Part shown: positions 10,734 to 55,141 of the stretch, piece by piece
How the letters are laid out: each line of letters opens with the position of its first letter
Numbering within the stretch: the first letter of the stretch is position 1
Assembly (NCBI GenBank): GCA_951406725.2
Contig: OX597816.1
Span: 70,184,001 to 70,248,000 of the forward strand
Source of the DNA: Octopus vulgaris
Lineage: Eukaryota
DNA: 64,000 nucleotides
Direction: 5' to 3'
Position numbers and translations under genes: made by a program
The notes under the pieces: generated by a model
The model's input: only the letters and a program-made list of their open reading frames with translations
Databases searched by the model: none
Told to the model about the DNA's origin: nothing

Positions 10734-12128
10734 GATATATATATAAATGCATGTGCGCTTGTATGTATGCGTGTGAGAGAGAAAGATAGGCAAAGAGAGA
10801 GAAAGAGATAGAGACAACAAATAGTGCTCAATACATAATTTTTCTTCATTGGAGTAAATATGACTTACTATTCCCTATAATGTCTACTGCAAAGCAGCGG
10901 TAAGTCAAATTTACAGCAATTAAGAGAACATATGTAATGGCCATCATTTACATCTTGTCTTGCATATATCACTCAGTTTAAAAAGTAGTAAAACTGAAAC
11001 ACAGCCACGGGTTTACAAAACAGAGTGGTGATGAATAATATCCAGAATGTTATGTTAAATTCTACGTATTACATTTACATAGCTGAGGGATAATCAAAGT
11101 TATGAAAAACTAGTTACTAGCCAAAGGAACAATCGGTAATCGAGGTTTTGGCCAATGAGGGATGAGAGCTAATTAATGTAGTTGAATGGAACGGAAGGAA
11201 TTATCACGTGACCGACCAGACCATCAGATGTTGCTACACATCGCTGGTCACAATGCGTTCGCATTGTTTTAGCCTTCGAACGACGCCACCCCGCTGGCTA
11301 AGCGAGCAAGCTAACAGAAGAAAGAGTGAGAGAAAGAGTGGGGAAAGAGTATAGCAGGGATCACCACCCCTCTGCCAGAGCTTCGTGGAGCTTTTAGGTG
11401 TTTTTGCTCAATAAACACACACAACGCCCAGTTTGGGAATCGAAACCGCGATCCTACGACCGCCAGTCCGCTGCCCTAACCACTGGGCCATTACTCCTCC
11501 ACTGGAAGAATTATAGCAGAATAAATTTTAGGTATTATTGGTGCCATAAACGTAATCGTAGTGAATATTGAGTTGTGGTCTCTTGGAGCAGACATGAATA
11601 GGAAGCAATAATACTGAAGAGGACAAACTGAGCTGAAAGGACTAGTTAAGGGAAATTATGAATATTTTTATAAAAATCATGTTATATACAGGAAATGCAT
11701 AAGATCATTCTTGTGTGAATTATGGTTTACAAATATCGGGCTACAAACAAGAGTAATTCTCAAGAAAAATTGATTCCAGTTATAAAATGCCTGCATCAAA
11801 TTAGAATTGGATGCAAAAATCAATTGTAATAAGTGTCATTATACAATTGTATAATTGTATAATTGTATGATTGTGTTTGTCCCCCCAACATCGCTTGACA
11901 ACCGATACTGGTGTGTTTACGTCCCCGTAACTTAGTGGTTCGGCAAAATATATCAATAGAATAAGTACTAGGCTTACAAAGAATAAGTCCTCTGGTCGAT
12001 TTGCTCGACTAAAGTTGGTGCTCTAGCATGGCCACAGTCAAATGACTGAAACAAGTATAAGAGAAAAAAGAGAAAGAGAATACAAGGGTCGAAAAACCTC
12101 CTAGCGAATGGGATAATAAACTTCCTAG

Positions 12129-12189
12129 CTTCGGTCAAGGGGATCGTCATGTATATTCCCAAGATGGTGAGAAAGAATGTAGAATTCAT
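12129..12189 (-). pseudogene. Signal-peptide exon of the peptide family with a mutated donor (copy 1)
   Basis: Encodes MNSTFFLTILGIYMTIPLTE; accgaag|CTAGGA replaces accgaag|GTAAGA; no mature-peptide exon seen downstream. Confidence 0.75.
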
Positions 12190-12978
12190 ATTGAACCTTC
12201 AAAATTTAAAAAAAAAACAAATATACAGATACATATGTAACCATATATATATAGACATATAGTGACTTTTATGCATATATAGGCAATATTTTTGGATGTA
12301 TTGTTCAAAGATATATAGGGCGTGACATAATTACTATCATAAGTAATTTGCCGATATCATCGATTTCAATTTTGAATATTAGAAATTGGTCGTCTAATTT
12401 CGATTTATATTCCCATGGATTATCTACGATTAAGAGATAATTAAGGATCTTGTATCCATGAACCGAATTATGATATGCAAACATTAATAAAAGAATTCTA
12501 CATGACCGGTGTATATTTACTACTTATAAACATATGTAGAAATAAGGCTTAACAGACTTTAAAAACGTATACGTAAGGATTTATTGGAAAATCTGATGAC
12601 AAATGCAGTAAAGACTTCATTGCAAAATTTCAGCAGCCTAACTCCAGTAAATAGTTTAGAAGATATTAACGGTTTACTAAGAATAGAAAGAGGTAGCTGT
12701 TATGACAATACCGCACAAATATTTTGGATACGTAAGCTTTTACATATATTTCAGATCACACCATAAAAGGAAACTTTCCGCTCAAGCGTCTGTGAGTGTT
12801 AAGCCACAGACACGGTCTTGCTGCTGCTATTACTAATACAACTATCACTTCTACTAATACCACTACTACAATTACCAGTACTACTGCCTACGAGTAGACT
12901 ACAGTTACCTACAACCACTAACACTGTTACTACTACAACTACTATGCAGCGTGTTATATATATTTCTACAGCAAACCA

Positions 12979-16275: not shown

Positions 16276-16502
16276 AATATATATATATATATGCATATAT
16301 GTGTAGGTGTATGTGCGTCTATGTATATATATATATATATTTATATATACCAATTAAGGACTGAACACGAAAAGTGGACAGTCAACATACTAGATATAGA
16401 CGTCAAATCGTCATTCACCACAAAAGATTATGTTCTCAGATCAAACTCAACACAAAACCATAGCAATAAACAAGTGAAAAATATACGAAATAAAATAATT
16501 AC

Positions 16503-16567
16503 CCATGTACTAACTTAGTTTCAGCTGTTATTTTCCGCAAGGAAAACTGCAGCCATCATCAGCATGG
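16503..16567 (-). ncRNA. Type I hammerhead ribozyme
   Basis: Reverse complement: ccatg CTGATGA tggctgcagttttcc-ttgc-ggaaaataacagct GAAA ctaa-g-ttag TA catgg (GUA triplet). Confidence 0.85.
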
Positions 16568-17009
16568 TCCGTTATAAATGTAATTTGCTGGACTAGATGC
16601 AAACACGATACCGAAATATCGCGTGCATGGAGTTCAGCCTATTACATTTGAATATATCTTTCAAATGCCTTTACTTTGGCGCGTTGAAACCCGAGAAAAC
16701 TAGCCTGCAGCTAATAATTAGCAGCAGTTAATTTATCGGTTAGAGAACATATTTATTTATATAAAATTAATTAAGGGTAGAAATTGATATTTATCAATTA
16801 AGACCAGTGGTCTAGCATATTAAAAAAGAATCCGAAGATTAAAATATTTATATATACCAATTAAGGACTGAGCACGAAAAGTGGACAGTCAACATGCTAG
16901 ATATAGACGTCAAATCGTCATTCACCACAAAAGATTATGTTCTCAGATCAAACTCAACACAAAACCATAGCAATAAACAAGTGAAAAATATACGAAATAA
17001 AATAATTAC

Positions 17010-17074
17010 CCTTGTACTAACTTAGTTTCAGCTGTTATTTTCCGCAAGGAAAACTGCAGCCATCATCAGCATGG
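17010..17074 (-). ncRNA. Type I hammerhead ribozyme with a stem I mismatch
   Basis: As 16503-16567 but the 3' arm is caagg. Confidence 0.7.
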
Positions 17075-17516
17075 TCCGTTATAAATGTAATTTGCTGGAC
17101 TAGATGCAAACACGATACCGAAATATCGCGTGCATGGAGTTCAGCCTATTACATTTGAATATATCTTTCAAATGCCTATACTTTGGCGCGTTGAAACCCG
17201 AGAAAACTAGCCTGCAGCTAATAATTAGCAGCAGTTAATTTATCGGTTAGAGAAAATATTTATTTATATAAAATTAATTAAGGGTAGAAATTGATATTTA
17301 TCAATTAAGACCAGTGGTCTAGCATATTAAAAAAGAATCCGAAGATTAAAATATTTATATATACCAATTAAGGACTGAACACGAAAAGTGGACAGTCAAC
17401 ATGCTAGATATAGACGTCAAATCGTCATTCACCACAAAAGATTATGTTCTCAGATCAAACTCAACACAAAACCATAGCAATAAACAAGTGAAAAATATAC
17501 GAAATAAAATAATTAC

Positions 17517-17581
17517 CCTTGTACTAACTTAGTTTCAGCTGTTATTTTCCGCAAGGAAAACTGCAGCCATCATCAGCATGG
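17517..17581 (-). ncRNA. Type I hammerhead ribozyme with a stem I mismatch
   Basis: As 16503-16567 but the 3' arm is caagg. Confidence 0.7.
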
Positions 17582-18023
17582 TCCGTTATAAATGTAATTT
17601 GCTGGACTAGATGCAAACACGATACCGAAATATCGCGTGCATGGAGTTCAGCCTATTACATTTGAATATATCTTTCAAATGCCTATACTTTGGCGCGTTG
17701 AAACCCGAGAAAACTAGCCTGCAGCTAATAATTAGCAGCAGTTAATTTATCGGTTAGAGAAAATATTTATTTATATAAAATTAATTAAGGGTAGAAATTG
17801 ATATTTATCAATTAAGACCAGTGGTCTAGCATATTAAAAAAGAATCCGAAGATTAAAATATTTATATATACCAATTAAGGACTGAACACGAAAAGTGGAC
17901 AGTCAACATGCTAGATATAGACGTCAAATCGTCATTCACCACAAAAGATTATGTTCTCAGATCAAACTCAACACAAAACCATAGCAATAAACAAGTGAAA
18001 AATATACGAAATAAAATAATTAC

Positions 18024-18088
18024 CCATGTACTAACTTAGTTTCAGCTGTTATTTTCCGCAAGGAAAACTGCAGCCATCATCAGCATGG
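18024..18088 (-). ncRNA. Type I hammerhead ribozyme
   Basis: Identical to 16503-16567. Confidence 0.85.
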
Positions 18089-19180
18089 TCCGTTATAAAT
18101 GTAATTTGCTGGACTAGATGCAAACACGATACCGAAATATCGCGTGCATGGAGTTCAGCCTATTACATTTGAATATATCTTTCAAATGCCTTTACTTTGG
18201 CGCGTTGAAACCCGAGAAAACTAGCCTGCAGCTAATAATTAGCAGCAGTGATGATGGCTGCAGTTTTCCTTGCGGAAAATAACAGCTGAAACTAAGTTAG
18301 TACATGGGTAATTATTTTATTTCGTATATTTTTCACTTGTTTATTGCTATGGTTTTGTGTTGAGTTTGATCTGAGAACATAATCTTTTGTGGTGAATGAC
18401 GATTTGACGTCTATATCTAGCATGTTGACTGTCCACTTTTCGTGTTCAGTCCTTAATTGGTATATATAAATATTTTAATCTTCGGATTCTTTTTTAATAT
18501 GCTAGACCATTGGTCTTAATTGATAAATATCAATTTCTACCCTTAATTAATTTTATATATATATTTATATACACATATATGTGTGTGTGGGTGGGTGTAT
18601 GTCTTATATATATATATAATACAATGTACATTTAAACACATAAGGACTCCACTCGTGGGATTCAACATGTTAGAAAGAACAGATAGGTTCTATAACCACA
18701 AACTTGATTAAGTATTGTAAGTTTTTGGATAATTTTCGGATTTTAAAAGTTGGCATTTTCCTATTGCCGACGAGGGGATGCGTCTGCGCAGTAGATTTTG
18801 AAAATAATAGGATATATAAAGAAGGGGCACATAGTTGATTGCCTCATGTTTTATATATTTAATCTAAAGTGTACCTGTTGACGAAGATTTGACCTAGCGA
18901 ATACTGTTTTTTTTTTTGCTAAACTAAAATCAGAAACCAATTGCTCCAGGAATCTAGATGGTAAAAGTTATTATTTTTTCATTTCGTCCCTGTCGGATTT
19001 TGTGGTTATAGAACCTAGCTTTTCTTTCTAGCGTGTTGAATCCCACGAGTGGATTCCTTGTGTGTTTAAATGTACACTGTATTTTATGAGTAATACATAG
19101 TCTTTGGACTAAATTTTTACACGGTAGGCCACTGGAAGTGAACATTTCTATTTATTTCCATTTCCCTTTGATATGATTAA

Positions 19181-21791: not shown

Positions 21792-23106
21792 TCATACATA
21801 CGAGACAAGCAGTTGATAATGGTTATTATATATTTTTCCCTCAAAGTAATAAATTTGACTTATGACTGTTTTCTAGGATGTCTACTGGAAACAGCTGTAG
21901 CTCCAATTTGCTGCAACTAAAATGTAATGACCATTATTTATATATTGCCTTGCATGTATCAATTTTTTTAAATAGACGGTAAATTCGATGCACAGCAACG
22001 GATTTACAAAATAGTGTGGTGGTGAACTATAACCTCGGATTCTGCCATAACAATAGGTGGAGTTCTTTATTGATCTAAGCGAGAAATTATGGAGCATTTT
22101 GTCAGGATTGATAATTCCCCACCAATAATTCTGTTTGAACATATACATGTATACACACACATAGATATACTTACATACACACACGCAGATATTTATGCAT
22201 GTATATATACATACACACGCACACATATATATACGGCCGACCACATAGTGGCTTGCCCTCCAAATATACATATATATATATATATATAGCATATATCATA
22301 ATGATATTTATTCTCCGATGCAAAGCGACAATTTTCAAACAAACAAATGACCGAAAAAATGATGATCTAACCTCAGGCTGAATCGAACTCACACACCGAC
22401 GCTTTCATGGCTCCTTGCGAATGTGATTGGCCAAACGCTTAGCCATCAATTTCAGTCAAATTTAGTTAAGTTATTGTTTAGTATACATACATATGGGTAT
22501 GTGTGAGTGTGTGTGTGTCTGTCTGTCTCTGTGTCTGTGGAGATATGTATCTGTGAATTAAATTGAGAGTTTGTGTTTCAGAATATTATGTTTAGTTCTA
22601 CGAATTGTATTTACATAGCCGTGCGATAATCACAGTCACACTAAAAGAACAATCGATCATTGTCTGATATTGGCCAATGAAAGGATAGATGTAACCAATG
22701 TATTCGAATGGAAAGGAGGAAATTGTAGGAAAATAAATTTAAGACATTATTGGTGAAATAAAAGCGTTTCAAGTGGACATCGAGATGTGATCTGTTGGAG
22801 CAGACATGAATAGGAAACAATAATTGTGAAGAAAACAAACTAAACTGAATGGATTGATTAAGGATTATATTGAGATATTTGTATTTATTAGAGGAATGTC
22901 ATGTTTAGGGAATCTTTTAACAGAACATTCTAGTGAATATTATGGTTCATATATATCGGAGCACAATGGGCAGTGATTCTCAAGAAAATTGATTCAAGAG
23001 AGTTATAAGTATCTTGCACCAAAACTAGATGCACAATTAATCATATTACGAATCCTTAGACAAGGGTCGAAAAATCATTTAAATAATGGGATACTAGTCT
23101 TCTTAC

Positions 23107-23167
23107 CTTTCGTCAAGGCACTCATCACGTATATTCTCAAGATGAGTTGAAAGAATGTAGAATTCGT
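23107..23167 (-). pseudogene. Signal-peptide exon of the peptide family with the start codon lost (copy 2)
   Basis: ttttacag|gttcatc ACG aat tct aca ttc ttt caa ctc atc ttg aga...aaa g|gtaaga; ATG>ACG, and Q and R in the hydrophobic core. Confidence 0.75.
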
Positions 23168-23291
23168 GATGAACCTGTAAAATTTATAAATATCAACATA
23201 TATAGAGATATGTAAACACATATAAAGATTTAGATACATACATAGGTATTATGTTTGATGTGTGTCCATACATATACAAACACATGATATA

Positions 23292-35444: not shown

Positions 35445-36170
35445 TATATTATGTCGAGGGCATTACTATACATAAATGTCACACGCGAGGAGGGACACTT
35501 AATATCAAAACTACCAAAATAAATGAATACATAACTACTTGATAAATTCTTATGAAGATTTTATCCTATTTTACCTTATTCAAAGATAAAATTTAACGAC
35601 TTTATTATTTAAATACTATTTTAAATTTCGTGTTCTTCTTAAGGTGGAGAAGTAACAGAACCAATGACGCGTCGGCAGATATACTTTAATGCATATTTTT
35701 CGACTCATTGCGTCTTGATTTCAGATCCCAGTTGCCTGGAGAAAGCAACAACAAACTAGGGTTGTATCTATAGTTTATTCATTTTAAGCGAATTTCCAAT
35801 AACCTAGTCAAAAACGACAGGTTAGGGACGGGCATTCCCAGGTGAAACCGAGAGTGCTGAAGGAGGTTCACATATGCAGGACATGAGCAAAGATAGAGCA
35901 CCAATAGACCAGATAATATGTTTGTAATTTTTCTTTATTCAATCTTTTAAAATACAACGCCGCTCTATGGTTATTCACAGAAATATTAAATACTAGGTTT
36001 GCTCATTGTAAATCGACAGAAAACGTTAATCATTTGACGATGTGGCCAATAAGTGCGTAGCATCGTGTTATTGAATCATTTTGACAATTATGTATGTAGT
36101 ACAACATCAACTTTGGAAGCCGTTCAAGCTCTGTACAAGCTGCTGCATTGGTTTTCCTTTGCTTTCCTTT

Positions 36171-36367
36171 TTATTTTGGATCTGGACAAGCCTTGGCACA
36201 CTTTACATACTGGTATAATATTCCTCTGCGGAAATATGTATAATAGCAATTATATCGACATTTGCAGTGCTCCTCTCGATAACACTTCTCCATAGAATTA
36301 TAAGAAAGAGCAATATCCTTGCTCTTAAGCTCAGCCTTGCAATCATATCGACATGCCAGTTCACCGG
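36171..36367 (-). CDS. Intact orphan mature-peptide exon (64 aa, 8 Cys) of the secreted peptide family (copy 3); possible alternative last exon
   Basis: ctaattttag|CC GGT acceptor; GELACRYDCKAELKSKDIALSYNSMEKCYREEHCKCRYNCYYTYFRRGILYQYVKCAKACPDPK*. Confidence 0.7.
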
Positions 36368-36724
36368 CTAAAATTAGAAAATGCGAAAAGTCATTAAATA
36401 GCATTTTATGATATTTAAAAACGAACATAAAGATACATTGCATCTTACTACATTCATTAGATTCATCTCTTTCTTTAAACCTGCTTTACGCTATTTCTAC
36501 TACATAGGTCAACGTTCAACGTGTCCACCGTTTAAAACAATTTACTCTCAACGCATATCACACATACATACTCTCAACTATATCACACATACATATATAT
36601 GGTGGTTACATAAGATTTCGTTATTGCAATAAATTTGACATGCAGCTGTTTCCAGTAGCTATCATAAGAAACAGCTCTAAGTCAAATTTACTAAAACAAT
36701 GAAAAATTATGCAGTGACAATTAA

Positions 36725-36806
<82 letters not shown>

Positions 36807-37364
36807 TTATAGTTCTAATCCAGAAACGCGTCCGTAACTAACCGTAGACTTTGTTTTCTTTATTTTTCCTTCTGTTTTACATATGTGAGTCACATGTATA
36901 TGTTGTATGTGGAGTCATACTTGTAGAAAATAGAAATAAGCGGTCTTTGACTGGTGTTTTTAATTCTTCGGTATGTGACTAAGCAACCTTTTACTTGCCC
37001 TTTTGTATATATATATATATATTTACTTGCCCTTTTGTATATATATATATATAAGCAAAGATGCAAGTTCTAAACCCTCTCCAGAGAATCACGTACTAGT
37101 TGTACTGCCAAGTAATATTCGTAGCCTCTTCAACATGAGTAAACGTTCGAACGAATTCTACTGCAATATTTTAACCCGAAGAGGACATCTACCCTATCTG
37201 GTTAACGATGATGCAGAGCTGAATCTGATAAATTGCAAGCAGAGGAGCTACCACATTCTAGTGTCTCGACGAGTAGACCACACTTGGTTTCGGGGTATTT
37301 CTGTCATCCTTCAGAACTGGACAACTTGTCTGCTAAAGATGGCAGTAGCTCGCCTATGCTTGCA

Positions 37365-37400
<36 letters not shown>

Positions 37401-38399
37401 CAAGCGAACCCACAGTCGCTGTGTCCCTTGAAATTTTACGTTACCATGGTGGACAGGTGAGTTTTAGCTTCACTACTATTATAATGTAAATCTTTTTGAA
37501 CTCATAATATTCTGTACGTGTATACCAATATTTACTGAACGTTTTTAATAATTCCTTCTGGAAATTATCTTGAGAATGTATAATATATTTGTTGTAATCT
37601 TTTGTGCCCATTATTTCAATGAGCTTGTTAAACTTTTTTATATTCTCAACATGCTCTTGTCACCAAAGAATGTACATTTATATGGATTGTAGTACTCTGT
37701 GTCAACCAATATTCTGTGCATGTTTGAATATACAGATACAATACCAATACCAATATCAATTCCTTCTGGAAACTATCTTAAGCATGTCTTTGAGAATGAT
37801 TATTTATGTAGTAATCTTTTGTGCCCAATATTTTAAGGAACTTGTTGAACTTTTTTATGTCCTTAACATGTCCCTGTTACCAAAGATTGTATATATGTAA
37901 TGTAGCAATTTGTAACACCAATAATTAACGCAACCAAACTTCTACATGTTACTTTTGACAATCTTTTTCAAAAGAGTGAAACCGGTAAAGTAAATAAACA
38001 TCTTTTAAATTGCATTTTCAAACCTTCTTTCGTATATAATTCCACTCGTGCGGTACCCTACAACGCCACTTTGTTATATATATACATCATGATTTAGAGT
38101 CTTCTCCAACACAACTTCGTTTTATAGACAGTTACTCTATATCCAATTGACTACTCCTAATGTATTCTTTCCTCTCTGACGTTAAGGGATACATATGGTA
38201 ATACTTATGATCATACCTAGCCATGAGCTGTCAACTCACTCTTACCTTTATTCTAAACAGACACAGTCCTCTAGTCAAAGATGTAGTAGTTGATAAAGAG
38301 ATAAATGAATTAGAAATAAATCACAATCCTCTACAAGCTACGACCCTAATGGACTTCATGCGATTCTTGGAAGGGAAGGCTATTCTTAGCTACAATAGC

Positions 38400-38454
<55 letters not shown>

Positions 38455-40657
38455 GCAATGAAAATCCTGGTATGAAAATTTAGGAGCATCCAGCACCTGT
38501 TCATGACAAATATTCTCTTGAAAAATTCCAAAAATTATAAAAAGAATATAGTATTTGCAGATTGCCATGTTCAGTATATAGCCTTATTTTTCACAATTAC
38601 GCCAATCGCTTTCAAATGTATTCATTCAGCATAGTTTGCAGAAGAATATACGGAAAATGAAAACTGTGATCAATAGAAGTTAATTTGGCTGATGGTAATT
38701 TCAGTTTCTTCACTTTAAGAAATGGGAAACGTTTTAGAAGACTTTGACTTCAAACAAATTCATCTGAAAAATTTATCAATGATTGCAACAATCATTTACT
38801 GCTTTTAATATGGCAGGCAAATGTAAACTCTCAGTACATTGGAGAAAACGGTATGATATTGATGTGATAAGTGACTAGCTTCTAAAGAAACGCTAAGAAT
38901 AATAAAGCTGATGGTGTTTGGGAAAATTTCGATCAAAATATATTTCTGGTCCTTTTTTATTATTTACTTATGCTTTTTATTACATTTTTTAAAAATGTAA
39001 ATTCATATGTATTGAATTGTCTTAAGTTAAACCATTTCAGCCTCATTTTTAGTAGTACTAGAATGTAAAATATTAACGTAAATATAATTAATTATATTAA
39101 TAACAGAAGCATTGTCACAAAGACACTAGAATTAAAAGAGCTGTAACTGAGCCTGGAAAAGTACAGGAAAAGAGGAAAGAAATCTTCAAAATCTAAAATA
39201 TCAATAACTGCCCTGAAATATTTTTTTAAATTTTTACAGAAAAGTTTATATTAAAATACTCAAGAAGCTATTTACTTTCAATTTTAGTGCATACTAACTA
39301 CCCAAAATTTATACATCAACATTTCAGTATTACAAATTTAGTGCAGTATACATTTTACAAATCACATAATAGTAATTTAAGTAAAATTGATTATGTATTA
39401 AAAACCCTACATTCTGATGTTCCTTTTTTAAAGGATAAAGTGCCATATATACATTTTGTACTCTACTTGTTTCTTGGCTTGCAGTTATTAAAATATATTC
39501 CTGACGGTAGACACTGTGTTATCTGAAACTGAAATCGCGATGAGATAATTTGTATCTTGGAAAACTTATATTTACTACTTTTTTAGACTAAATTTTGAAT
39601 TACATATCTTATAAATATACATGCACTATAAATATTTAAAACTGATATGTTAACGTAAATTCAAAAAACTTGCAATACAAAAACATAAATAAAACATAAC
39701 AAAAACATGCGCACAGTATTTGATGAACAATTCCAGAAATTATTTTCGTCCAAATACCGTCAGCTTCATTTTTCTCAGCCTAAAAGAAACAAATTACTGT
39801 AAGGGTCAAAGAAAACTTCGAGCCTGTATGGTCCAATTTTAACTGTTCTATAACTGCTATTTTAACAGCTATTTTATTTGCTGTTTTAAATATTAAGTAT
39901 ATAGATAAAAGATAAAATTGAACGACTTTATTCTGGTATTTTAACTACTATTTTAACTTTATAGATTGTCAGCCGCTTACAGCCGTCATCACAGTCTATT
40001 ACACAGAAAGTATCCCTAGCGTGCGAAGGTACGTTTTCCAGTGATCAGCGATGCACATGTACGATGGTTAGATTGTGTGACACCTTCTCTTCTTGAGTAA
40101 AATACTTCATTTCGTGCTCCTCTAAAGGTGGAAGAGTAACAGAACCAATGACGCATCGGCAGATATATTTTAATGCATATTTTTCGACTCATTGCGTCTT
40201 GAGTTCAGATCCCAGCTGCCTGGAGAAAGCAACAACAAACTAGGGTTGTATACATCTATAGTTTATTCATTTTAAGCGAATTTCCAATAACCTATTAAAA
40301 AGCGACAGGTTAGGAACGGGCATTCCCAGGAGAAACCGAGAGTGCTGAAGGAGGTTCACATATGCAGGACATGAGCAAAGATAGAACACCAATAGACCAG
40401 ATGATATGTTTGTAATTTTTCTTTATTCAATCTTTTAAAATACAACGCCGCTCTATGGTTATTCACAGAAATATTATCTACTAGGTTGCTCATTGTAAAT
40501 CGACAGAAAACGTTAATCATTTGACGATGTGGCCAATAAGTGCGTAGCATCGTTTTACTGAATCATTTTGACAATTATGTATGTAGTACAACATCAACTT
40601 TGGAAGCCGTTCAAGCTCTGTACAAGCTGCTGCATTGGTTTTCCTTTGCTTTCCTTT

Positions 40658-40851
40658 TTATTTTGGGTCTGGACAAGCCCTAGCACACTTTGCATACTTG
40701 TAGATTAGTGCTCTGCGGAAATATTTATAATAGCAATTATATCGACATTTGCAGTGCTCTCGATAACACTTCTGCATAGAATAATTAGTAATAGCAATAT
40801 CCTTGCTCTTAAGCTCAGTCTTGCAATCATATCGACATGCCAGGACACCGG
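40658..40851 (-). CDS. Secreted Cys-rich peptide, copy 4, exon 3 (63-aa mature peptide)
   Basis: Acceptor ttttag|CC; GVLACRYDCKTELKSKDIAITNYSMQKCYREHCKCRYNCYYKYFRRALIYKYAKCARACPDPK*; phase matches the exon at 42763-42823. Confidence 0.85.
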
Positions 40852-42762: not shown

Positions 42763-42823
42763 CTTCGGTCAGGGCATTCATCATGTATATTCCCAAGAAG
42801 ATGAGAGAAAGTGTAGAATTCAT
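42763..42823 (-). CDS. Secreted Cys-rich peptide, copy 4, exon 2 (signal peptide)
   Basis: ttttacag|tttcaac ATG; MNSTLSLIFLGIYMMNALTE plus G|gtaaga (phase 1). Confidence 0.85.
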
Positions 42824-43000
42824 GTTGAAACTGTAAAATTTATAAATAACAACTTATATATTTATACATAAACACATACATACAGACATATCATGATGTA
42901 TATGCATACGTAGGTATTATGCTCGTATGTATATGACACTACTTGGAAAAATTATTAATTTTTAATTAATTAATATTAGTTTTACCCTTTATTATTGTTG

Positions 43001-43029
<29 letters not shown>

Positions 43030-43050
<21 letters not shown>

Positions 43051-44825
43051 TATGACAACTCCTGCTATATCTGTGAACAATATACATCTGAGCCACTATT
43101 TGTAGAAACATATCAACAAACATTAAACTTACATACAAATATTATTTTAACAGTAATTTAGGACAACAATAGTATGACTGGGACCCACATATGTGCTGTG
43201 CACAATGCAATTCGCTGTTAATAGCCTGGATGAACAGTAAAAAAAAACCTATGCAGATCTCAATCCCTAGAGTTTTGTGTGAGCTGAAAAACCACATCAA
43301 TGTCTCACAAAGAAACTTCTATTCTATTCAAATTGCGAGTCAGCAATAAATCGGGTATCACATGATGAATCAAATCCATCAACAGTTCCACCGGCAACGA
43401 CGACAGACAGCTGTTCATCTTAACAATCCGATAGCGATGTAGAAATAGGGATATATAGCGTATATGTTCCTGAAATTGGTCATGAGGAGTTAAAGGACTT
43501 AGTGCGCAATTTGGAATTACCAATATTTAGAGGCAGACTTGCTTGGTTCCAGATTTCAAGAATGGAATCTTCTCCAACCAAACAGCAACGTTTCCCGTAT
43601 GCGTCATCGCCATTTGCATTTTTCATCATATCACATACAGAAAGAGATCGTTTGTTTTTGCCACGACTTCAGTGGTCTGAACGAAAGGATTTAACATTCG
43701 CTATATCTCAAAAGAATGGTGAATGTTCATTAACTCTTTTAAAGCTAGGCTTGAAGCAGCATTATTGCATAACGGCAATAACTGTAGTATATTTCGCTGG
43801 CTTTAATGAGACTTATTAATCAATCGAACTACTGCTAAGATTCTCGAAATATAAAGATCGTATATAGAACAATGTAGCGATCTTAAAATTGTATCGTTAC
43901 AAATGGGTTCTAGTTGGCTACACAAAACATATGCGCTTTTACGCCTATGGAACAGTAGAAATGACAAGAACCTCTCCAGAAACATGATTAGCCATCTAGA
44001 ACTGAACATGCTATTGGTAAACACAAAATGAAACACTCAGCACTTACTGACCTTCATAAAGTACATCTTCCACCATTTCACATTAAACTTGATCTTATAA
44101 AAAATTTCGCGAAGGGTAATATCATCTCGACAGTGCGTTCTAATATAGAAAGGATAAATTCAAAGGAATATTGGCAGGTGCTAAGCTAGAAGCTGGAGTT
44201 ATCATTGGACTACAAAACTGAAAATAAATGTAAGCTGGTAGAAAACTTGGGATGCAGAATGTCTTTGAAAATGTTTTTTTTACATTCTCATCTTCTTCCC
44301 GGTCTACACTCGAGTGGTAAGTGACGAGCATGGTAAGCGAGTAGACGAACAGATCTCAGTTATGGAAAGCAGATACCAACATAATTTCAACCTGAATACG
44401 ATGGAAGATTCTTGTTGGTTCCTGCAGAGAGAGAATTTGTCAAGCTACAAAGGACAAAGGAAAAGGAAACACCAAAGTTTCACTTTAAAAAAAGGGAGTT
44501 CTTTAATAACAACATAATACTAACGCGCTTTGGATGAATGGTCTGTTACAGGGATGGTAACTTCGCTAGCGGGATTCCACTGTCTTCCTTCAGTCAGAAT
44601 AAAGGGGGAAAGACATTCATGTTTACTAATTATCTAAATATACTTATCATAAAACGTAAAACGGAAAAGCCGTTTAGATGGCTTTCATAATAGAAACGGC
44701 AGGGAAAAATGAAAAATAGAAGTTTTCAGTAACAGAAAGTCTGGACGTGATTAGAAGTATTTATATATCGGATTAGAAATTAGCATCAGAAATGTGGCAG
44801 GAATCAGAAGTCTACATATCTTTAA
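43030..44825 (+). mobile_element. Decayed DNA transposon (Chapaev3-like) in intron 1 of copy 4
   Basis: VSDEHGKR..QISVMESRYQ...MEDSCWFLQRE, plus an N-terminal CYICEQYT...W.PHIC remnant. Confidence 0.65.
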
Positions 44826-45413
44826 CAACAACATAAAAAATGAAATCTACTCCCTCATACTAATAACGTATCGGACACTGTCTAATTTTAGTTCCACTGA
44901 AATGCAAACGTTTAACGTTCTTTCTACGTTATGGCCTGATATGAATATCAAACACATATATCTAAATAGACAGGTCACACTTTAAAACGCAGTAAGTATT
45001 GAAGTACGTCCAAAATACATAGATTCTGTTTCAAATTGTCCTTGAAGCTCTAGATATAACTTAGGTTTATGATGCAAAGCTGTTCTCAGTTTCTCTAGTA
45101 CATATATAAGATTCGATTTGTGTTAGTTTTCACATAATCCATAGTCAATCCTGACGAGATAAATACAAAAAATCTGGATTCGTACATTGAAAACCTATAA
45201 TCCATGAAACTCCTGTTGAAAACGAAGCATAAATAAATTAAATAATTAAATAAATTTAATTAACGAAGATAAGTTCTGCTGACGGGAGAAAAATGAATAA
45301 AGTTCCAATAAATAGTATATCAATTCAAATACATCTAGAACAAAAACCTCAAATAATTACAAACTGAAACATACACGCAAGCGTACATGCGCGCACACAC
45401 ACGCGTATATACT

Positions 45414-45484
<71 letters not shown>

Positions 45485-46121
45485 AGAGAGACAAGGGGAG
45501 AAAGGGAGGAAGGCATATGCGCTTATATTTTAGTGCTTGCGTTTTGCTTTTGCCTCAACAAAGCTTGATAACTGGTGGTGGCGTTTTTACGTCACCGAAA
45601 TAGAGCGGTTCGGCAACAGACACCGATAGAATGCGACGTAGGTAGGTGGGTTGGTGCAAGCTTGTTTGAGTGACTACGCAGTCAAATGCATTAATTTGAG
45701 AAAGTGTGTCCTACAATAACCAAGGGCCGCCGTCCATTTCTGGTGAATAAGGAAATGGTGAGGAAGCCCTGCATGTAACACAGAAATGTGTGTGTGTGTT
45801 TTGTCTGTCCTGCACCAACACTTGATAACCGGAGATGGTTTATTTATGTCACAGTAATTTTAAAATTCGGCAACTGAAAAGGGTGCAGTTAGTCTGGTGC
45901 TCAGTAGTGTGGGCGAACTGCTTATGTTAAACTGCTAGGGTTGCAGTCTAAAGACTAAAGAAAATAAAGGATGTAGATAAAGAGATAGATAGATGGATAG
46001 ATAGATAGATAGACAAATAGATAGATAGATAGATAGAGACAGACAGAGAAAAAGCAGAAAGATACATAGAGAGACAGTTAAATATAAATACAGATATGAA
46101 GATAGGAAGAATGAAACTTAC

Positions 46122-46172
46122 CAGTAAGTGCTTCTTTGTATGTGGTGTAGAAGGTAACAATGCACTTATATA
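46122..46172 (-). promoter_or_regulatory. TATA box and non-coding exon 1, copy 4
   Basis: TATATAAG at 46172-46165; cacttactg|GTAAGT donor at 46122. Confidence 0.7.
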
Positions 46173-48359
46173 AGAATCCTACGTCAAGCTGTCACAAATA
46201 TAATACATGTTTATCGCTTGTTTATTTCAATGAAAGTTTTATTATAAACCTTCAAAATAGTAATTATTGAGATTACACTTACTTTCTTCCTTGTGTCAAG
46301 TGTCACGTTTACAGGCCAAGATCCCGGCCATTATCTCCTCGCATGCATTTTCAAGGAGTAAGGAAAATACCACTACATAGAGAGATACATATACACCCAT
46401 ACATACACATACATACGCACACACGAGTTTTTTAGATTACTGTATGTGCCCAAGTTTATGAGCGTTTTTGAGTATGTATGTAAATTCACAAAAAAAAACA
46501 ACAAAAGACAAAGACAGGTGATGTAGACAACAAACAGATGTATTAGTATAACGCTAGGGAAGTGAAAAAGTTATTAACGTTCCGAGCCTACGCTCCTCTA
46601 CAGAAAGGAACACAGAAACAAGGAGAGAAAATAAAGAATGTGTAGTGGCTAGCTATATATCATGGTGAATACCGGACAGAAGGGTCACACAGGAAAGCTA
46701 GTGATACGGGGAGATAATAAAGTAGTGGTGATCCCCTTATATATAAGTATGTATCTATGTGTAAGTTTCCTTTGTGTTCGAGCTAGTCCCACCAACAGCG
46801 GTTGACAAAATTTGTTGGTGTGTTTACATCCCCGTAACTTAACGGTTAGGCAAACGGGACCGAGAGGATATGTACTAGGCTTTGAAGAATTAATAAGTCC
46901 TTGGGTTGATTTGTTCGACTAAACTTTTCAGGCTCCAGCCTGTCCGCAATTAAATGACTGTAACAAAATATAAAGGAGAGCCAATGCAACAGCTGGTACA
47001 GAGCTTGAACGGCTCCAAAGTTGATGTTTCACTATCTCTTCTCTTCCAATTTCAACTTTCTTCAAAGCATAAAGAAATAATTTTTTTAAAGGAAATTAAC
47101 GAATACATTTGAAAACTGAGTTGCCGATTTTGACGAATGGGATATCGAAAATTCAGTAATATTTTGGCCAGTAAAGTACGTTATTTGCATTTACATATTT
47201 GCATTACAAAAATTTAACATTATAATCTGTCTATAATTCAACTATCCTAAACGAAACTTTATACCATGACGACGACGACGTCACATATTTCTATATGAGT
47301 GTGTGCCTTAAAAGACGTCCATTTCTCTATAAATTATGAGGAAATATAATCACTCACTTTCTCACATGCAAATGCAGACACACAGAAAGATAATGTGTGT
47401 GTGAGAAATAGAGAGAAAGAGCGAGAGCGGGAGAAAGGTAGTGAGGACCACTTACACATACATGCAAAAAATTACATACATGAAAACACACATTTCATTC
47501 ATTCCCCCTCCCTTTCTTTCTCTCTCTTTCACACGCACACACGCACGCATGCGCACACACACGTCTATTTCATATACACGTACATACATCTTTCACTTTC
47601 TCCTCCCTTTGCATTTCTGCTCCCATTTCAAATCAAATGTCGCGTTTTCACTTTCTCCTCTTTTTCAATTTCTACTCTCTTCAAAGCATAAAGATATTTA
47701 AAAAATTCATACGGAAATTAAAGAACAATCATACGATCTACCATATGAAACACTCAACAACATTCCTGCTTCAAAAGAAAGGCTGCCGTAAAATATCATA
47801 CTTTGGCACACACACGCACGCACACACACACACATACACACACACACACATACTACTTGAAACTTCTTTATAAATTATGTTATTTCTTGTTATGTGCACG
47901 CGCAAAATTACAGCCGAAATCCAATTGAAATCATGTTTTTCTATTCTGTAATTCGTGAATTCTCTCTCTCTGTATATATTTACATACATACTTAGAAACG
48001 CACGTATGCTTGGGCACATGCACTAATCTTACAAATGTGTGTGTGTGTTTGTGTTTGTGCGCGTGTGTGTCTGTGTGTTGCGTTTGTGTGCATGTGTGTG
48101 TGTGTGTGTGTGTGCGCGTGTGTGTGCGTGTATATGTATCTCTCTATGTAGTGGTGTTTTCCTTTTTCTTTGAAAATGCATGCAAGGAGATAATGGCCAG
48201 GATCTTTACCTGTAAACGTGACACTTGACACAAGGAAGAAAGTAAGTGTAATCTCAATAATTACTATTTTGAAGGTTTATAATAAAACTTTCATTGAAAT
48301 AAACAAGCGATAAACAACTCGGAATGTATTGTATTTGTGACAGCTTGGCGTAGGATTCT

Positions 48360-48410
48360 TATATAAGAGCATTGTTACCTTCTGCACCACATATGAAGAA
48401 GCACTTACTG
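48360..48410 (+). promoter_or_regulatory. TATA box and non-coding exon 1, copy 5
   Basis: TATATAAG at 48360-48367; cacttactg|GTAAGT donor after 48410; the next acceptor is ttacag| at 48746. Confidence 0.7.
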
Positions 48411-48753
48411 GTAAGTTTCATTCTTCCTATCTTCAAATCTATTTATATCTATCTATCTCTCTATATATCTTTCTGCTTGTCTCCGTCTGTCTCTATATAT
48501 CTATCTTTGTATCTATTTGTCTATCTATCTATCTTCATCCATCATTTTCTTTAGTCATTAGACTGCAATCCTGGCAGTTTAACACGAACAGTTTGCCCAC
48601 ACTATTGAGCATCGTACTAACCTACTCCTTTTAGTTGAGTTTAATGTTTGTTGATATTTATGTATATATTTATATGCATATATAAATATACATATATATG
48701 TGGACATATACATACAAATATATGTTGGTATTTATACATCTTACAGGTTCAAC

Positions 48754-48817
48754 ATGAATTCTACACTTTCTCTCATCTTCTTCTTGGGAATATACATGAT
48801 GATTGCCCTGACCGAAG
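48754..48817 (+). CDS. Secreted Cys-rich peptide, copy 5, exon 2 (signal peptide)
   Basis: ttacag|gttcaac ATG; MNSTLSLIFFLGIYMMIALTE plus G|gtaaga. Confidence 0.85.
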
Positions 48818-50704
48818 GTAAGAAAACTGGTCACCCATTCGTTAAATGATTTTTCGACCTTTGTCTATTTGCGCATGCAAATCTAATTTTAGTGCAGAAT
48901 TTTCATAACTGTCTAGAATCAATTTTCCTGAGAATTACAATTCATACAAGTATGCTTTCTTAAAAATTCCCTATATATGAGATTCATTTTATAGATAAGA
49001 TATATCTTAATATAATCCTTAATCAATCCCTTCAGTTCAGTTTGTTCCCTTCACTCTTATTGCTTCCTTTTCATGTCTGCTTCAAAAGACCACATCTCAA
49101 TATTCACTTCGAGCAATTTCATCTCACCAATAATATTCCATTCGACGAAATTACTTAGCTCTATCCTTTCATTGGTCCGAATCACACAATTACCGATTGT
49201 TCCTTTAGGTTGGACTTAGTTCTCCATAAGTGCGATTGTGATTATCACACGGCTATGTAAATACCACATTTGGAACTAAACATAACATACTGAAACACAT
49301 AATAAACGCAATCGCATACATACATTACACATACGCTCACACGACATACACCACACAAGTATACTAAGCAAAAATTCTTCTTTTATTAAAACTCTTAATG
49401 CAACACGGAACCAAAATGTGCCTCTTCTGATTAAATGCAGATGAATGTTGGTTGCGGTGCCCTTTTCATGACTCTCAAAACCCGTCGTTCATTGCTACAT
49501 TGAGCGTTATTCATTTTGTCTTTACTGGAATGCGTAACGAATAATCGATTATTACAGGCCAAGATTCCATTGCCAATTGCAGTATCACATATATGATGGA
49601 AACCAAAATAAAGAATAAGTTTTTTTCATGATTTTCAGCATTTCCTCATTCTCAGAGACTATTTCCAAAGATATAATCACTGGAAACTTTTATTCTAAGA
49701 AGAAACACATTCCCTCTTATACACAATTGAAAACATATCAGTCCAATATCAAAAACGATGTAATGCATTTTATAAGAATGCTTAATCATTTCCTTCAGTA
49801 GAAACCTCAAGAACGCTGTTCTATCTGTCAAACAGTTCTAAATGAATCTCATGAAATCACTGGGTACCATATATTTGTAACGTTTGTCGATATTACTATC
49901 AAGAAACATGATATATCTTGCTGAAATCATCCTAATAAGTGTCATCAGTATGATCTGTCTTTTACAGTTTCAATCCTTCTCTTAACCTATTTATTCAATA
50001 TTTCGTTTCTTGAGCTGCTACTCTCTAGAATGCACTTTACATTTTAGTTTTCTCAGAATCGTGAAAATTTGGAATGTCCTATTTGAGAACCCGAGTCTGT
50101 GTAGATGTACATTAAGAACGTCTCTTCCAGCTGTATTATCACCGTCACTTAAAACATAACGTTCTATGAAAATCATCAATTGGTTTTTCTAATATATTGA
50201 TCACTGTCGTTGAAAGTGAGTAAATATTTTCGCAGGAGTAAACGTCTCGCATTTTTATTTTAAATAAAAGCGATGGTGTCTCTATTACAGCAATATAATG
50301 TTGAGTGTAAATCGCTTCATGGAATTCATCCAAATTGTCAAATAATTTAGAGCACTTAAATACATGAAAAACAGAACAATTAAAATCATAGCAGTCAGAT
50401 CAACTAATTTTGTGTCGTCTTCAATAAAGATAAAATTAGGAAGTTCAAACGACAAATTGGTATGGGTAATAGGTGACAGAATAATGGAGTTATTTAGGAT
50501 ATTATAGAGAGATATATGCGTTGAGAGTAAATTGTTTTAAACGGTGGACACGTTGAACGTTGACCTGCGCAGTAGAAACAGCGTAAAGCAGGTTTAAAGA
50601 AAGAGATGAATCTAATGAATGTAGTAAGATGCAATGTATCTTTAAATTCGTTTTTAAATATCATAAAATGCTATTTAATGACTTTTCGTATTTTCTAATT
50701 TTAG

Positions 50705-50898
50705 CCGGTGAAGTGGCATGTCGATATGATTGCAAGCCTGAGCTTACGAGCAAGAATATTGCTCTTACTTATGATACTATGGAGAAGTGTCGTCGAGAGC
50801 ACTGCAAATGTCGATATAATTGCTATTATAAATATTTCCACAGAGGAATGATATACCAGTATGAAAAGTGTGCCAGGGCTTGTCCAGATCCAAAATAA
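50705..50898 (+). CDS. Secreted Cys-rich peptide, copy 5, exon 3 (63-aa mature peptide; 85-aa precursor)
   Basis: ctaattttag|CC completes the Ala codon; GEVACRYDCKPELTSKNIALTYDTMEKCRREHCKCRYNCYYKYFHRGMIYQYEKCARACPDPK*; AATAAA at about 51128 and 51288. Confidence 0.85.
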
Positions 50899-53184
50899 AA
50901 AGGAAAGCAAAGGAAAACCAATGCAGCAGCTTGTACAGAGATTGAACTGCTTGCAAAGTTGATGTTGTACTACATACATAATTGTCAAAATGATTCAGTA
51001 AACGATGCTACGCACTTATTGGCCACATCGTCAAATGATTAACGGTTTCTGTCGATTTACAATGAGCAACCTAGTAGATAATATTTCTGTGAATAACCAT
51101 AGAGCGGCGTTGTATTTTAAAAGATTGAATAAAGAAAGATTACAAACTTATCATCCGGTCTATTGGTGCTCTATCTTTGCTCATGTCCTGCATATGTGAA
51201 CCTCCTTCAGCACTCTCGGTTTCTCCTGGGAATGCCCGTTCATAACCTGTCGCTTTTTAATAGGTTATTGGAAATTCGCTTAAAATGAATAAACTATAGA
51301 TGTATACAACCCTAGTTTGTTGTTGCTTTCTCCAGGCAGCTGGGATTTGAACTCAAGGCGCAATGAATCGAAAAATATGCATTAGAATATATCTGCCGAC
51401 GCGTCATTGTTTCTGTTACACTTCCACCTTTAGAGGAACACGAAATGAAGTATTTTGCTCAAGAAATGAGGGTGTCACCCAATCTAACCATCGTACATGT
51501 GCATCGCTGATCACTGGGAAACGTACCTTCGCACGTTAGGGATACTTACTGTGTAATAGACTGTGATGACGGCTTTAAGCGGCTCGGCTGACAAACTATA
51601 AAGTTAAAATAGTAGTTAAATTACCAGAATAAAATCGTTCAATTTTATCTTTTATCGATATACTTAATATTTAAAATAGCTGTTAAAATAGCAGTTATAG
51701 AACAGTTAAAATTGGAGAATACAGACTCTAAGATTTCTTGGACCCTTAGAGTAACCTTTTTCTTTTCAGCTGAGTGAAATGAAGCTGGCGGTAAATTTTT
51801 TAGATGAATTTGTTTGAAGTCAAAGCCTTCTAAAACGTTCCCCGTTTCTTAAAGTGATGAAACTGAAATTACCTTCAGCCAAATTAACTTCTATTGACCA
51901 CACTTTTCATTTTCCGTTTATTCTTCTGCAACATTTGAAAGCGATTGACGTAATTGTGAAATGTGAGGCTATATAAAATCTGCAAATAATATATTCTTTT
52001 ATTATTTTGTAAATCTTTGTCATTAACAGGTGCTTCATCCTCCCAAATTTTGATATAAATAAGGAGACCCCCCACTTTGTTGATGCCCTATTCGGCAAAG
52101 ATAATGTGTGATGTTCTAAAAACTGAATTTTTTTTTTTGCTACAATCTCTTCAGTGTATTCCATGATCAGAATATTCAATAATAACAGTAACGTCATTTA
52201 TACACGAAGCACTTGTTTTGACAATTTGAATATAAATATTTTTCTGAACAAATTTTGATGTACCGAATGTATTGTTTGAAGAAATAAATAAAACTCTAAG
52301 ACACAAAATCTGTAGAAACAGCTTCGAAGATCGGTAAATAACCTTAGAAACGCAAAAGTTTGGCCAGCAAGCCGCTGCAAATTATCGAGACTCTTAACAC
52401 TAAAATTCTGGCTACCTGTGCCATTAAGTTGCATGACCCCTGATAACAGATACGGTCTTTATAAGAAAGATCATCATCAGCAGCATCAGTAGCATCATCA
52501 TCATCGCAAAAAGTGTTGTCAGACTTTAGCAAAATTAAGGTGTTTGCATTCAGCGTCTATACCCATAATACATTGCCATGAAGAATGTTATAATTTTGCA
52601 GAAGCTATGGCAAATAACTTTAAATTCTTCAAAACCAGAGTTCCATCAACGAAATATTTTCTCCGGGATAATCGGTTATTTTTTCTTTACTGGATAATGT
52701 TCTATACCACTTTAAATCTGTGTGATGTGACAGAAAAATGTCTGTAATTTTATCCTCAATTCGGTGTGGAGACACACACACTCACACACACGCACATACA
52801 CACACACACACTCGCGCACACACACAAGCGTGCGCGAGAAAGTTCAATTTCAAAGCGGATCAACGGTTCATCTGGAGTCATAAGCTCCTGAGGCCGGTTT
52901 ACCAGAATATGTGGTGTCTCTATCGCTACTCTCTGAACTGAACTCCGTATTGTCGCCGAGTTACCTATTTTTCCCAACTGTTTGGACTGTAGCAACGTGA
53001 AATGAATTGCTGAGGCCAAGAATACGATGCTTCGCCGACTCCAATAATCCAACCCAGAAGATTGCAATCAAGATTGCAAAACACTAAGTTACACACCTTG
53101 TGTGTGTATGTGTATACATATATGAATATATTATGTATACACATAATATACACGTGAAAGCACGTGGTTGGATATATATAAAAA

Positions 53185-53741
53185 AATATAATAAAAGAGT
53201 GAAAAGACTACAGAAGGCTTGTTTTATAAGGTTAAAGAATATATTTAAGTCGTTATGTTAGAAAAATGTTAGAAAATTTTGTGTATAGTAACATAGATTT
53301 GGGGGAAAGACCGGTTTTGTGTAAACTTTTCAATTTCTCAAATTTCTTTACCTACATCGTGTCACGTCTTCATTATGAAGTGCAAAGAGAGTTCCAGGCA
53401 GGGGGAGGTAATAAGGGATTTCTTCTAACATTCTTATACAGAGAAACTTATCTCATTAAAAAATAAATAAATAAATAAATAAATAAAGTGATTATCTCCC
53501 TTATTCGGGAAGAAATCCCTTATTACCTCCCCCTGCCTGGAACTTCTTTTTGCACTTCGTAATGAAGGCATGACACGATGTAGGTAAAGAAGTTTGAGGA
53601 ATTGAAAAGTTTACACGAAACCGGTTTTTCTCCAAAAACTATGTTACTATACACAAAATTTCCTAACATTTTTCTAACATAACGACTTAAATATATTCTT
53701 AAACCTTATAAAACAAGCCTTCTGTAGTTTTTTCAATCTTT

Positions 53742-53750
<9 letters not shown>
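53185..53750. repeat. Long inverted repeat (arms of about 240 bp)
   Basis: About 53185-53424 is the reverse complement of about 53510-53750. Confidence 0.8.
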
Positions 53751-53783
<33 letters not shown>

Positions 53784-53791
53784 GTACATAC

Positions 53792-53827
<36 letters not shown>

Positions 53828-53857
53828 CTCTATATATATATATATATGTGTAAATGT

Positions 53858-53901
<44 letters not shown>

Positions 53902-54275
53902 TGTGTGTGTCTCTCTCTCTCTATATATATATATAACATTTACTTGTATATAACAATACAAGGCTAACAATAACGTTTAGAATAGTTAAGAACTGAACGT
54001 ATTCTCACGGAAGGGTCGGAGGTTATAGCTCAGCACCACTCAATATTGTAAATACGTGGTCTCGCTTATATCAAACACACATATATATATGGTGATTACA
54101 TATGATTTCTTTATTGCAATTAATTTGACATGCAGCTGTTTCCGACAGTTATCAGAAGAAACATTTGTAAGCAAAATTTACTGCAACAAAGAAAAATTAT
54201 GTAGTGACAATTAACTAATGCTTGTCTCAAATATAATATAAATGCGTATATATACATGTATATATACATATATAC

Positions 54276-54336
<61 letters not shown>

Positions 54337-54606
54337 ATCGAAACAAGAAAACACAGCAACGCGAGGACGTGGAACAAATAAAGTATTATTGGACGCTCAT
54401 GCAAATGGGAAGAAGGAGGGCTTAACGTTTCGAGCGGAGCTCTTCGTCGGAAACATAGGAGAAGGAAAGATCCCGAGAAGGGAAGACAGAGGAAAAAATC
54501 GGCGAAACAAATCGCTGGCGGTACTCACGAGGTCACATAATGTATATATATTTATAAATGTATGTGTGTTTGTGTGTGTGTATATGCATATACACACACA
54601 CATACA

Positions 54607-54639
<33 letters not shown>

Positions 54640-55141
54640 AAAGCTAAAATCTCTCCAGAGATCTGCGTACAAGTTGTACGTAGCCACTTCAACATGTGTC
54701 TCCGTTCGAACGTACTCTAACTCTACTGCGATTTTTAAAAATTGCGAGCTGAAGCGAGTTACGGCCATCTTTGGTAGAAGAAAACCCAAAACCAGGACTG
54801 TTCTACTGGTCCCGTTCCTTGATGGTGGTAGCGGTTAGTTCCCCTGCTCGCAGTTTATCTGATGTAGCTCTGCCTCAAAAACAAGCCGGAAGAAATGTCC
54901 TCTTAGTGTCAAAATTATTGCGGTAGAGTCCATTCAAACGGACAGACATGTAGAAGTGGATACGAATAATACTTGCTTGATATATATATATATATATATA
55001 TATACGATGGGTTTCTTTTCAGTTTCCGTCTAGCAAATTCACTCACAAGGCTTCGGTCGGTCCGACGCTACAGTTGAAAACACTTGCCCAAGGTGGCTCG
55101 CAGTTGGACTGAACCCAGAACAATGTAATTCGTAAGCAAGC

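Follow-up and report, generated by a model that had tools for sequence, protein, structure and literature searches.

The block at 35580-36558 (minus strand) of the window, by which we mean the whole 64,000-nt stretch of Octopus vulgaris DNA analyzed here, is a headless last-exon copy (hereafter, the orphan) belonging to a family of cysteine-rich helical peptides. We give about an even chance to the reading that copy 4, the family gene located upstream of it, uses it at a low level as an alternative last exon of recent origin. Genes of this family have three exons: a short non-coding exon, which probably follows a TATA-like box, as judged from conservation; a signal exon of about 20 codons whose donor is in phase 1; and a last exon encoding the mature peptide. 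The main features are collected in table 1, where, as in the text, coordinates outside 1-64000 are on the window scale (position on contig C3 = value + 70,184,000).

Table 1. Position of the orphan exon, of copy 4, and of related units of the peptide gene cluster
Feature	Position	Strand	Remarks
Decayed headless exon	-114.7k		acceptor AG lost
Headless exon	-81.8k		open, but head without ATG
Decayed headless exon	-52.5k		stops in frame
Orphan 3'UTR copy	35580-36170	-	AATAAA at 35939, 35779, 35606; deletion of ~150 nt at 35625
Orphan last exon, coding part	36171-36367	-	phase-1 start, 64 codons, 8 Cys
Orphan intron 2 piece	36368-36558	-	191 nt; acceptor AG (36369-36368) intact
Rearrangement breakpoint 36558/36559	36544-36594	.	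near-perfect tandem duplication of 25-26 nt across junction
Old palindromic element, putatively MITE-like	36589-36721	.	adjoins breakpoint 36558
Genome-wide interspersed repeat stack	36810-38400	.	no family exon
Copy 4 3'UTR and 3' flank	38471-40657	-	AATAAA at 40427, 40267, 39932, 39878, 38981, 38961
Copy 4 last exon	40658-40851	-	proximal competitor, 63 codons
Copy 4 exon 2	42763-42830	-	ATG at 42823; predicted signal peptide of 20 codons; phase-1 GT donor
Copy 4 exon 1, predicted non-coding	46122-46172	-	putative, from conservation in paralogs; donor 46121; probable TATA-like box 46172-46166
Complete inverted paralog c50	48194-51446	+	exon 1 ~48400; signal exon 48747-48817; last exon from 50705
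Complete paralog c61	58845-62099	+	tandem twin of c50 in 10.65-kb duplication
Headless exon	82.1k		first two Cys lost
Right-end gene, exon 1	85.8k		
Right-end gene, signal exon	91022	+	C3:70,275,022; L036:7022-7081
Right-end gene, cassettes	92088, 97984, 110269, 113898, 114612	+	L036:8088, L037:3984, L038:6269, L038:9898, L039:612

Alignment to copy 4 bears out the preliminary description of a duplicate of about 1 kb covering exon 3, its 3'UTR and about 190 bp of intron with an intact acceptor. Homology extends from 36558 to 35625 (938 nt, 94.4% identity) and resumes in a second piece (35628-35582) after a deletion of about 150 nt relative to copy 4; a high-copy repeat starts at about 35572, at the end of the orphan 3'UTR. 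The frame (36365-36174, with a TAA stop at 36173-36171) is open and contains a glutamate insertion resulting from the duplication of GAG at codons 31-32. Two differences separate the last 52 intron nucleotides, up to the acceptor, from those of copy 4. The location first given for the orphan, on the same strand as copy 4 and about 4.3 kb downstream of it, is also correct, this being the distance from the copy 4 stop to the orphan acceptor. Neither a signal exon nor an exon 1 was detected in 36368-40657, whether with nhmmer profiles of the family or by a motif scan that recovered copy 4's own signal exon as a positive control, in agreement with the earlier report of an interval devoid of signal exons. 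On the minus strand, no intact head other than copy 4 exon 2 precedes the orphan. The arrangement is that of alternative last exons: two exons that are 94% alike, starting at 40851 and 36367, lie on the minus strand behind donor 42763, and the distal one has an intact acceptor, the same phase, a stop and a poly(A) signal of its own, but neither promoter nor first exons. The idea that the exon at 42763-42830 could be spliced to either cassette is partly supported, and the anatomy (strand, phase, near-identical acceptor, and absence of an own head) permits it. Transcripts aimed at the orphan must pass the AATAAA signals of the copy 4 3' flank (eight between the copy 4 stop and the orphan), and the acceptor of the proximal copy 4 exon is as good as that of the orphan.

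The orphan does not have the characters of a processed pseudogene (retrocopy), as part of an intron (191 nt) is retained and exons 1 and 2 are missing. Capture by a transposon was not favored either, because the repeats matched by one flank are not those matched by the other. The breakpoint at 36558/36559 is probably of the microhomology or templated-insertion type, as judged from the sequence around it. The palindromic element next to it has its best matches inside the cluster, with 92% identity to the 3' side of a paralog situated right of the window and 85% to two further cluster sites. The orphan may thus have arisen as a headless tandem copy by a local rearrangement of the microhomology type, presumably at a time when 3-4% less divergence separated the copies. 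Some transcripts initiated at the copy 4 promoter would then read through the copy 4 poly(A) signals, bypass the proximal exon at 40851, and have their signal-exon donor at 42763 spliced to 36367, the product being a second predicted secreted peptide with the copy 4 signal.

The intactness of the orphan is weak evidence of function. Because its non-coding divergence from copy 4 is only 3.4-3.7%, it would have remained intact in about one of four cases under neutrality (about 0.26 = 0.51 × 0.54 × ~0.95, the last factor, for the AG, being an estimate): in simulations with four substitutions, the frame and all cysteines were retained with a frequency of 0.51, and the probability of no frameshift was 0.54. 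The preliminary description was right about the intact frame and the in-frame glutamate, but the "many substitutions" that it ascribed to the orphan are mostly those of copy 4, since, of the 18 coding differences, 11 occur in copy 4 alone and just 4 in the orphan alone. The changes private to the orphan number 4/191 in the intron, 4/194 in the coding part (plus the insertion) and 15/529 in the UTR, versus 2/191, 11/194, and 2/529 for copy 4. Divergence is thus flat along the orphan (coding 4/194 versus non-coding 19/720, p = 0.80), a test whose power is low with only four to five changes, while the coding part of copy 4 is strongly accelerated (11/194 versus 4/720, p = 2e-5). Between the orphan and c50 or c61, all 14-15 coding differences are non-synonymous, and they are split over two branches.

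Most peptides of the family consist of one C-x3-C ... C-x4-C module; two modules are found in those encoded by the orphan, copy 4, c50, c61, c75 and the -3.5k gene. The AlphaFold2 model of the orphan peptide (pLDDT 83) contains helices at residues 9-15, 22-33, 35-45, and 50-58, and the product is predicted to form two disulfide-stapled hairpins, with a putative cysteine pairing. The glutamate insertion changes the spacing between the third and fourth cysteines to x5, which is found in only 1 of the 16 family peptides compared (x4 in 12, x3 in 3). Alpha-hairpinins are defined by a C-x3-C-xn-C-x3-C motif, a helix-loop-helix fold, and C1-C4/C2-C3 disulfides. The octopus peptides are reminiscent of them by their C-x3-C ... 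C-xn-C modules, which are predicted to be helical and occur as two in tandem in the orphan clade. Module 2 of the orphan (C36/C40, C56/C60) fits the motif, but module 1 departs from it (most paralogs have x4 there, the orphan x5), and the likeness is a resemblance only, as neither sequence nor structure searches produced a match. Like other members of the family, the orphan peptide is probably secreted, and the combination of a hypervariable mature part, a fixed cysteine frame and a conserved signal peptide hints at a possible defence, venom or recognition peptide.

Searches for relatives of these peptides gave no real Pfam match for three family members and a best E-value of 1.2 among PDB sequences. 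Word-index protein searches yielded homologs for none of three peptides; their targets were at most 112 aa long and gene models of 113-186 aa were thus missed. A profile search of 1.84 billion representatives returned four matches, three of which are predictions from the present locus and one an unrelated moth repeat protein. The ESM Atlas provided no usable match for two family peptides. With the orphan model, Foldseek returned no match and VIA-align a best Z of 3.8 (rmsd 7.3 over 60 residues), with none at 5 or above; these null results do not show that the fold is new. A full-text literature search, with subscription papers and bioRxiv supplements outside its range, found no description of the family, and four short family motifs were absent from two proteomics supplement files, one belonging to PMC7693380 and the other to PMC10138644.

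We considered 24 sequencing runs, none of which is on record as RNA; nine contain part of the stretch, and none contains half of it. The contigs of eight of these nine runs were aligned to the orphan region only (35500-36700, 35480-36720). A 42763>36367 junction with orphan-diagnostic bases was not seen in the contigs aligned to 35480-36720, where it could appear only as a loose end, and the copy 4 head was not found as a loose end on orphan contigs among the matches listed. Coding contigs of runs X8 and X9 end at 36350-36352, before the acceptor. Run X1, whose RNA status is a guess, contains a 195-nt contig (36002-36196, depth 2.7, no splice junction) that has one difference from the orphan over about 175 scored sites versus four from copy 4, seven from c50, and nine from c61, and that carries the orphan-private 3'UTR bases at 36067 and 36071. 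This contig hints at transcription of the orphan, but a DNA origin could also explain it.

Runs X2 and X3 bear two other organism labels. A 598-nt contig of X2 joins a family signal exon to exactly the acceptor position of the orphan, which confirms that this exon boundary is used within the family. The X2/X3 sequence is nearest to the orphan (16 differences versus 28-29 for X3). Because it has no glutamate insertion, shows a deletion of 1 nt close to the stop, and is a mosaic that includes copy 4 and c50 alleles, it is not the exon at 36367 of the present genome; the head of the X2 contig has ATT, like c50, c61, and c73, versus AAT in copy 4 of the present genome. This contig fits a shared head in another organism as well as a complete gene there. 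Over 36094-36369, X2, X3, X5, and X7 contain an allele or paralog absent from the present genome, with the 1-nt deletion and a mosaic of copy-4 and orphan bases, which suggests that the two tandem exons have recombined or that animals vary strongly. Contigs of X4, X8, and X9 correspond to c50-like sequence. If X2 and X8 are RNA, their paralog contigs, which pass the equivalents of the first two AATAAA signals (to 35866 in X2 and beyond 35625 in X8), hint at leaky 3' ends. Since the clade formed by the orphan, copy 4, c50, c61, and c75 has also lost the proximal 3'UTR of the family, leakiness may be a property of its 3' end.

Among public gene models, CAI9719436.1 joins 42764 to 36368. We rejected it as transcript evidence because, from 36207 in the orphan, it jumps to a piece at 5586-5383 and to a paralog exon read out of frame; a model that continues into such unrelated pieces shows only that the predictor finds the junction plausible. 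All three models found at the locus (CAI9719436.1-CAI9719438.1) are chimeric or mis-started, and the peptide family is therefore effectively unannotated.

The family extends from about -126 kb to +115 kb, forming a cluster of about 240 kb in the 464 kb examined, which contain no N. We counted 15 signal exons and 21 last-exon units; 9 of the latter have no signal exon of their own, 3 of the former have no tail, and several heads have lost their ATG or donor. Two signal-exon fragments on the minus strand of the window are without last exon, one (12082-12213) having lost its GT donor and the other (23059-23193) having lost its ATG and acquired a stop. A last-exon-only tandem duplicate is also found on the minus strand at C3 ~70,102,100-70,108,400 (L025), with an in-frame stop in the proximal copy, an open distal copy, and GTG in place of ATG in their common signal exon. 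Paralogs c50 and c61, which lie in the opposite orientation to copy 4, belong to a recent 10.65-kb tandem duplication (97%) occupying 47026-64000, from which most of intron 1 (42865-45872 equivalent) is deleted. At the left end of the window, long inverted repeats (1-721 and 6101-6821, 95.6%) bound a 6.8-kb element, likely a DNA transposon, within intron 1 of a gene that has its signal exon about 1 kb outside the window, on the left. A tandem array of four 507-nt units (99%), ending in an inverted copy, occupies 16337-18568.

A basal gene situated 27-51 kb right of the window (C3:70,275,022-70,298,720) contains one head followed by five open cassettes on the same strand. No other head was detected between these cassettes by nhmmer (E ≤ 0.5), blastn, and motif scan; the 91k head itself was recovered at E = 1e-9 before its use as a seed. 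The five frames comprise 32-45 codons, and the canonical AG is kept in four of them, the 114.6k cassette having TG and an in-frame AG 43 nt upstream. Cassettes 110k and 92k lack the last and the first cysteine, respectively. The three cassettes that were placed in the tree form one clade (support 100/99). Identity in the coding parts (0.33-0.52, Cys-Cys codons left out) is below that of the adjacent intron (0.61-0.81) in 6/6 pairs (p from 0.021 to 5e-11), and divergence is greater at codon positions 1-2 than at position 3 in 10/10 pairs, the pairs not being independent and intron ends possibly being constrained. Deeper non-coding pieces align at about 72-83%. The neutral chance that the four distal frames be open is 0.004-0.085, two of these four cassettes having been recognized in part because their frames are open. 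Another unit, near 116k, contains no exon. These comparisons point to selected alternative last exons. As the cassettes have diversified like translated exons and have no heads, they would most simply share the head at 91022, and this gene is the strongest candidate in the cluster for a true multi-ending peptide gene. We rate slightly below an even chance the broader proposal that the family diversifies by repeated last-exon-only duplication, with positive selection at the basal five-cassette locus and the exon at 36367 as the newest independent start.

Somewhat less probably, the orphan is instead silent debris of birth-and-death evolution, that is, a young partial duplicate that is spliced never or by noise and is not yet broken. 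Its flat divergence and the one-in-four neutral expectation for its intactness agree with this, as do the disruption of a conserved cysteine spacing by the glutamate, the 150-nt deletion and terminal repeat in the 3'UTR, and the abundance of tail-less heads and decayed headless exons in the cluster. However, orphan-private alleles are present in the RNA-like run X1, and the older headless cassettes of the right-end gene appear to be under diversifying selection, which indicates that headless exons can be used; moreover, the selection test on the orphan has little power.

It is improbable, in our view, that the orphan is the remnant of a complete gene whose 5' half was deleted in the present haplotype, complete or hybrid (copy 4/orphan) alleles existing in other animals and the exon acting here at most as a donor for gene conversion or unequal crossing-over. 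The 3'UTR tree places the orphan outside the group of copy 4, c50, and c61 (support 80/84), so that it may predate a simple copy 4 offshoot, but the intron-plus-coding tree leaves the branching order of the orphan, copy 4, and the paralogs unsettled. The X2/X3 type combines orphan-derived coding bases (36305, 36299, 36218, 36205) with a copy-4 type of 5' end (36335), as would be expected of a hybrid, and X7, a DNA-size run, contains X3-type, copy-4-type, and c50-type pieces side by side; on the other hand, contig graphs can merge paralogs into mosaics. No X7 contig crosses 36558 in the 76% of the run that was read, where contigs show presence and not absence. Such an origin is in any case compatible with a present use as alternative last exon. 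Far less probable still is a misassembly of the 36.5-38.5 kb interval, in which the true locus would have a signal exon of its own. This interval is rich in repeats and (AT)n tracts, but the 464 kb examined have no gaps, and a 122-nt contig of X5 crosses the breakpoint and is identical to 36529-36650, its gene-side arm of 30 nt falling one nucleotide below the 31-nt bar set for a bridge (X5 is the best holder among the runs, and its independence is uncertain). Furthermore, the orphan differs by 3-6% in non-coding sequence from every paralog and is therefore not a collapsed or split copy.

Arrangements of this kind have precedents in serpins, conifer CLEL genes and frog antimicrobial peptides; the octopus peptide family is apparently undescribed. 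Alternative C-terminal exons are duplicated in insect serpin-1 genes such as PpSerpin-1 (PMC10513286), and also in a venom serpin (PMC12758981). As in serpin-1, a common 5' part would be joined to one of several tandem, fast-evolving 3' exons, and exon duplication would stand in for gene duplication. The variable serpin-1 exon, however, encodes 44-50 aa of a large protein and its isoforms were shown by RNA, whereas the octopus exon encodes the whole mature peptide of candidate isoforms, the signal peptide alone being common to the endings. Alternative 3'-terminal exons of conifer CLEL genes encode separate peptides, with splicing that is largely predicted (PMC4016512). Here too, one signal-peptide start is associated with terminal exons carrying different secreted peptides, but CLEL products are plant signalling peptides with short linear motifs and no cysteine frame, unlike the Cys-framed octopus peptides. 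The report on the cpf-St4/cpf-St5 antimicrobial peptide cluster of Silurana tropicalis describes a fragment spliced to the adjacent gene, with 17 ESTs (PMC3731216). This is likewise a clustered family of secreted peptides with partial genes, but in a mirror image: the frog tail-less gene takes the terminal exon of its neighbor, whereas the octopus headless exon would take its neighbor's head, and the peptides are unrelated. The five-cassette layout, with a presumed single promoter and a single signal peptide, would be the mirror image of the protocadherin layout. According to PMC12758981, alternative splicing is rarely documented for venom-type peptide arsenals.

If the reading of the orphan as an alternative last exon of copy 4 is true, copies of whole genes, an old gene with several cassettes, and a nascent cassette of recent date coexist side by side in one cluster, in which it would be directly testable how a duplicated terminal exon turns into a used isoform instead of a pseudo-exon. 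Even if the orphan alone were silent, the family and its five-cassette gene would still be of interest. The analysis exposes about 20 octopus exons for hypervariable, disulfide-rich peptides, an apparently unstudied family whose annotation is wrong and in which five endings behind one start would let one gene make several different peptides.
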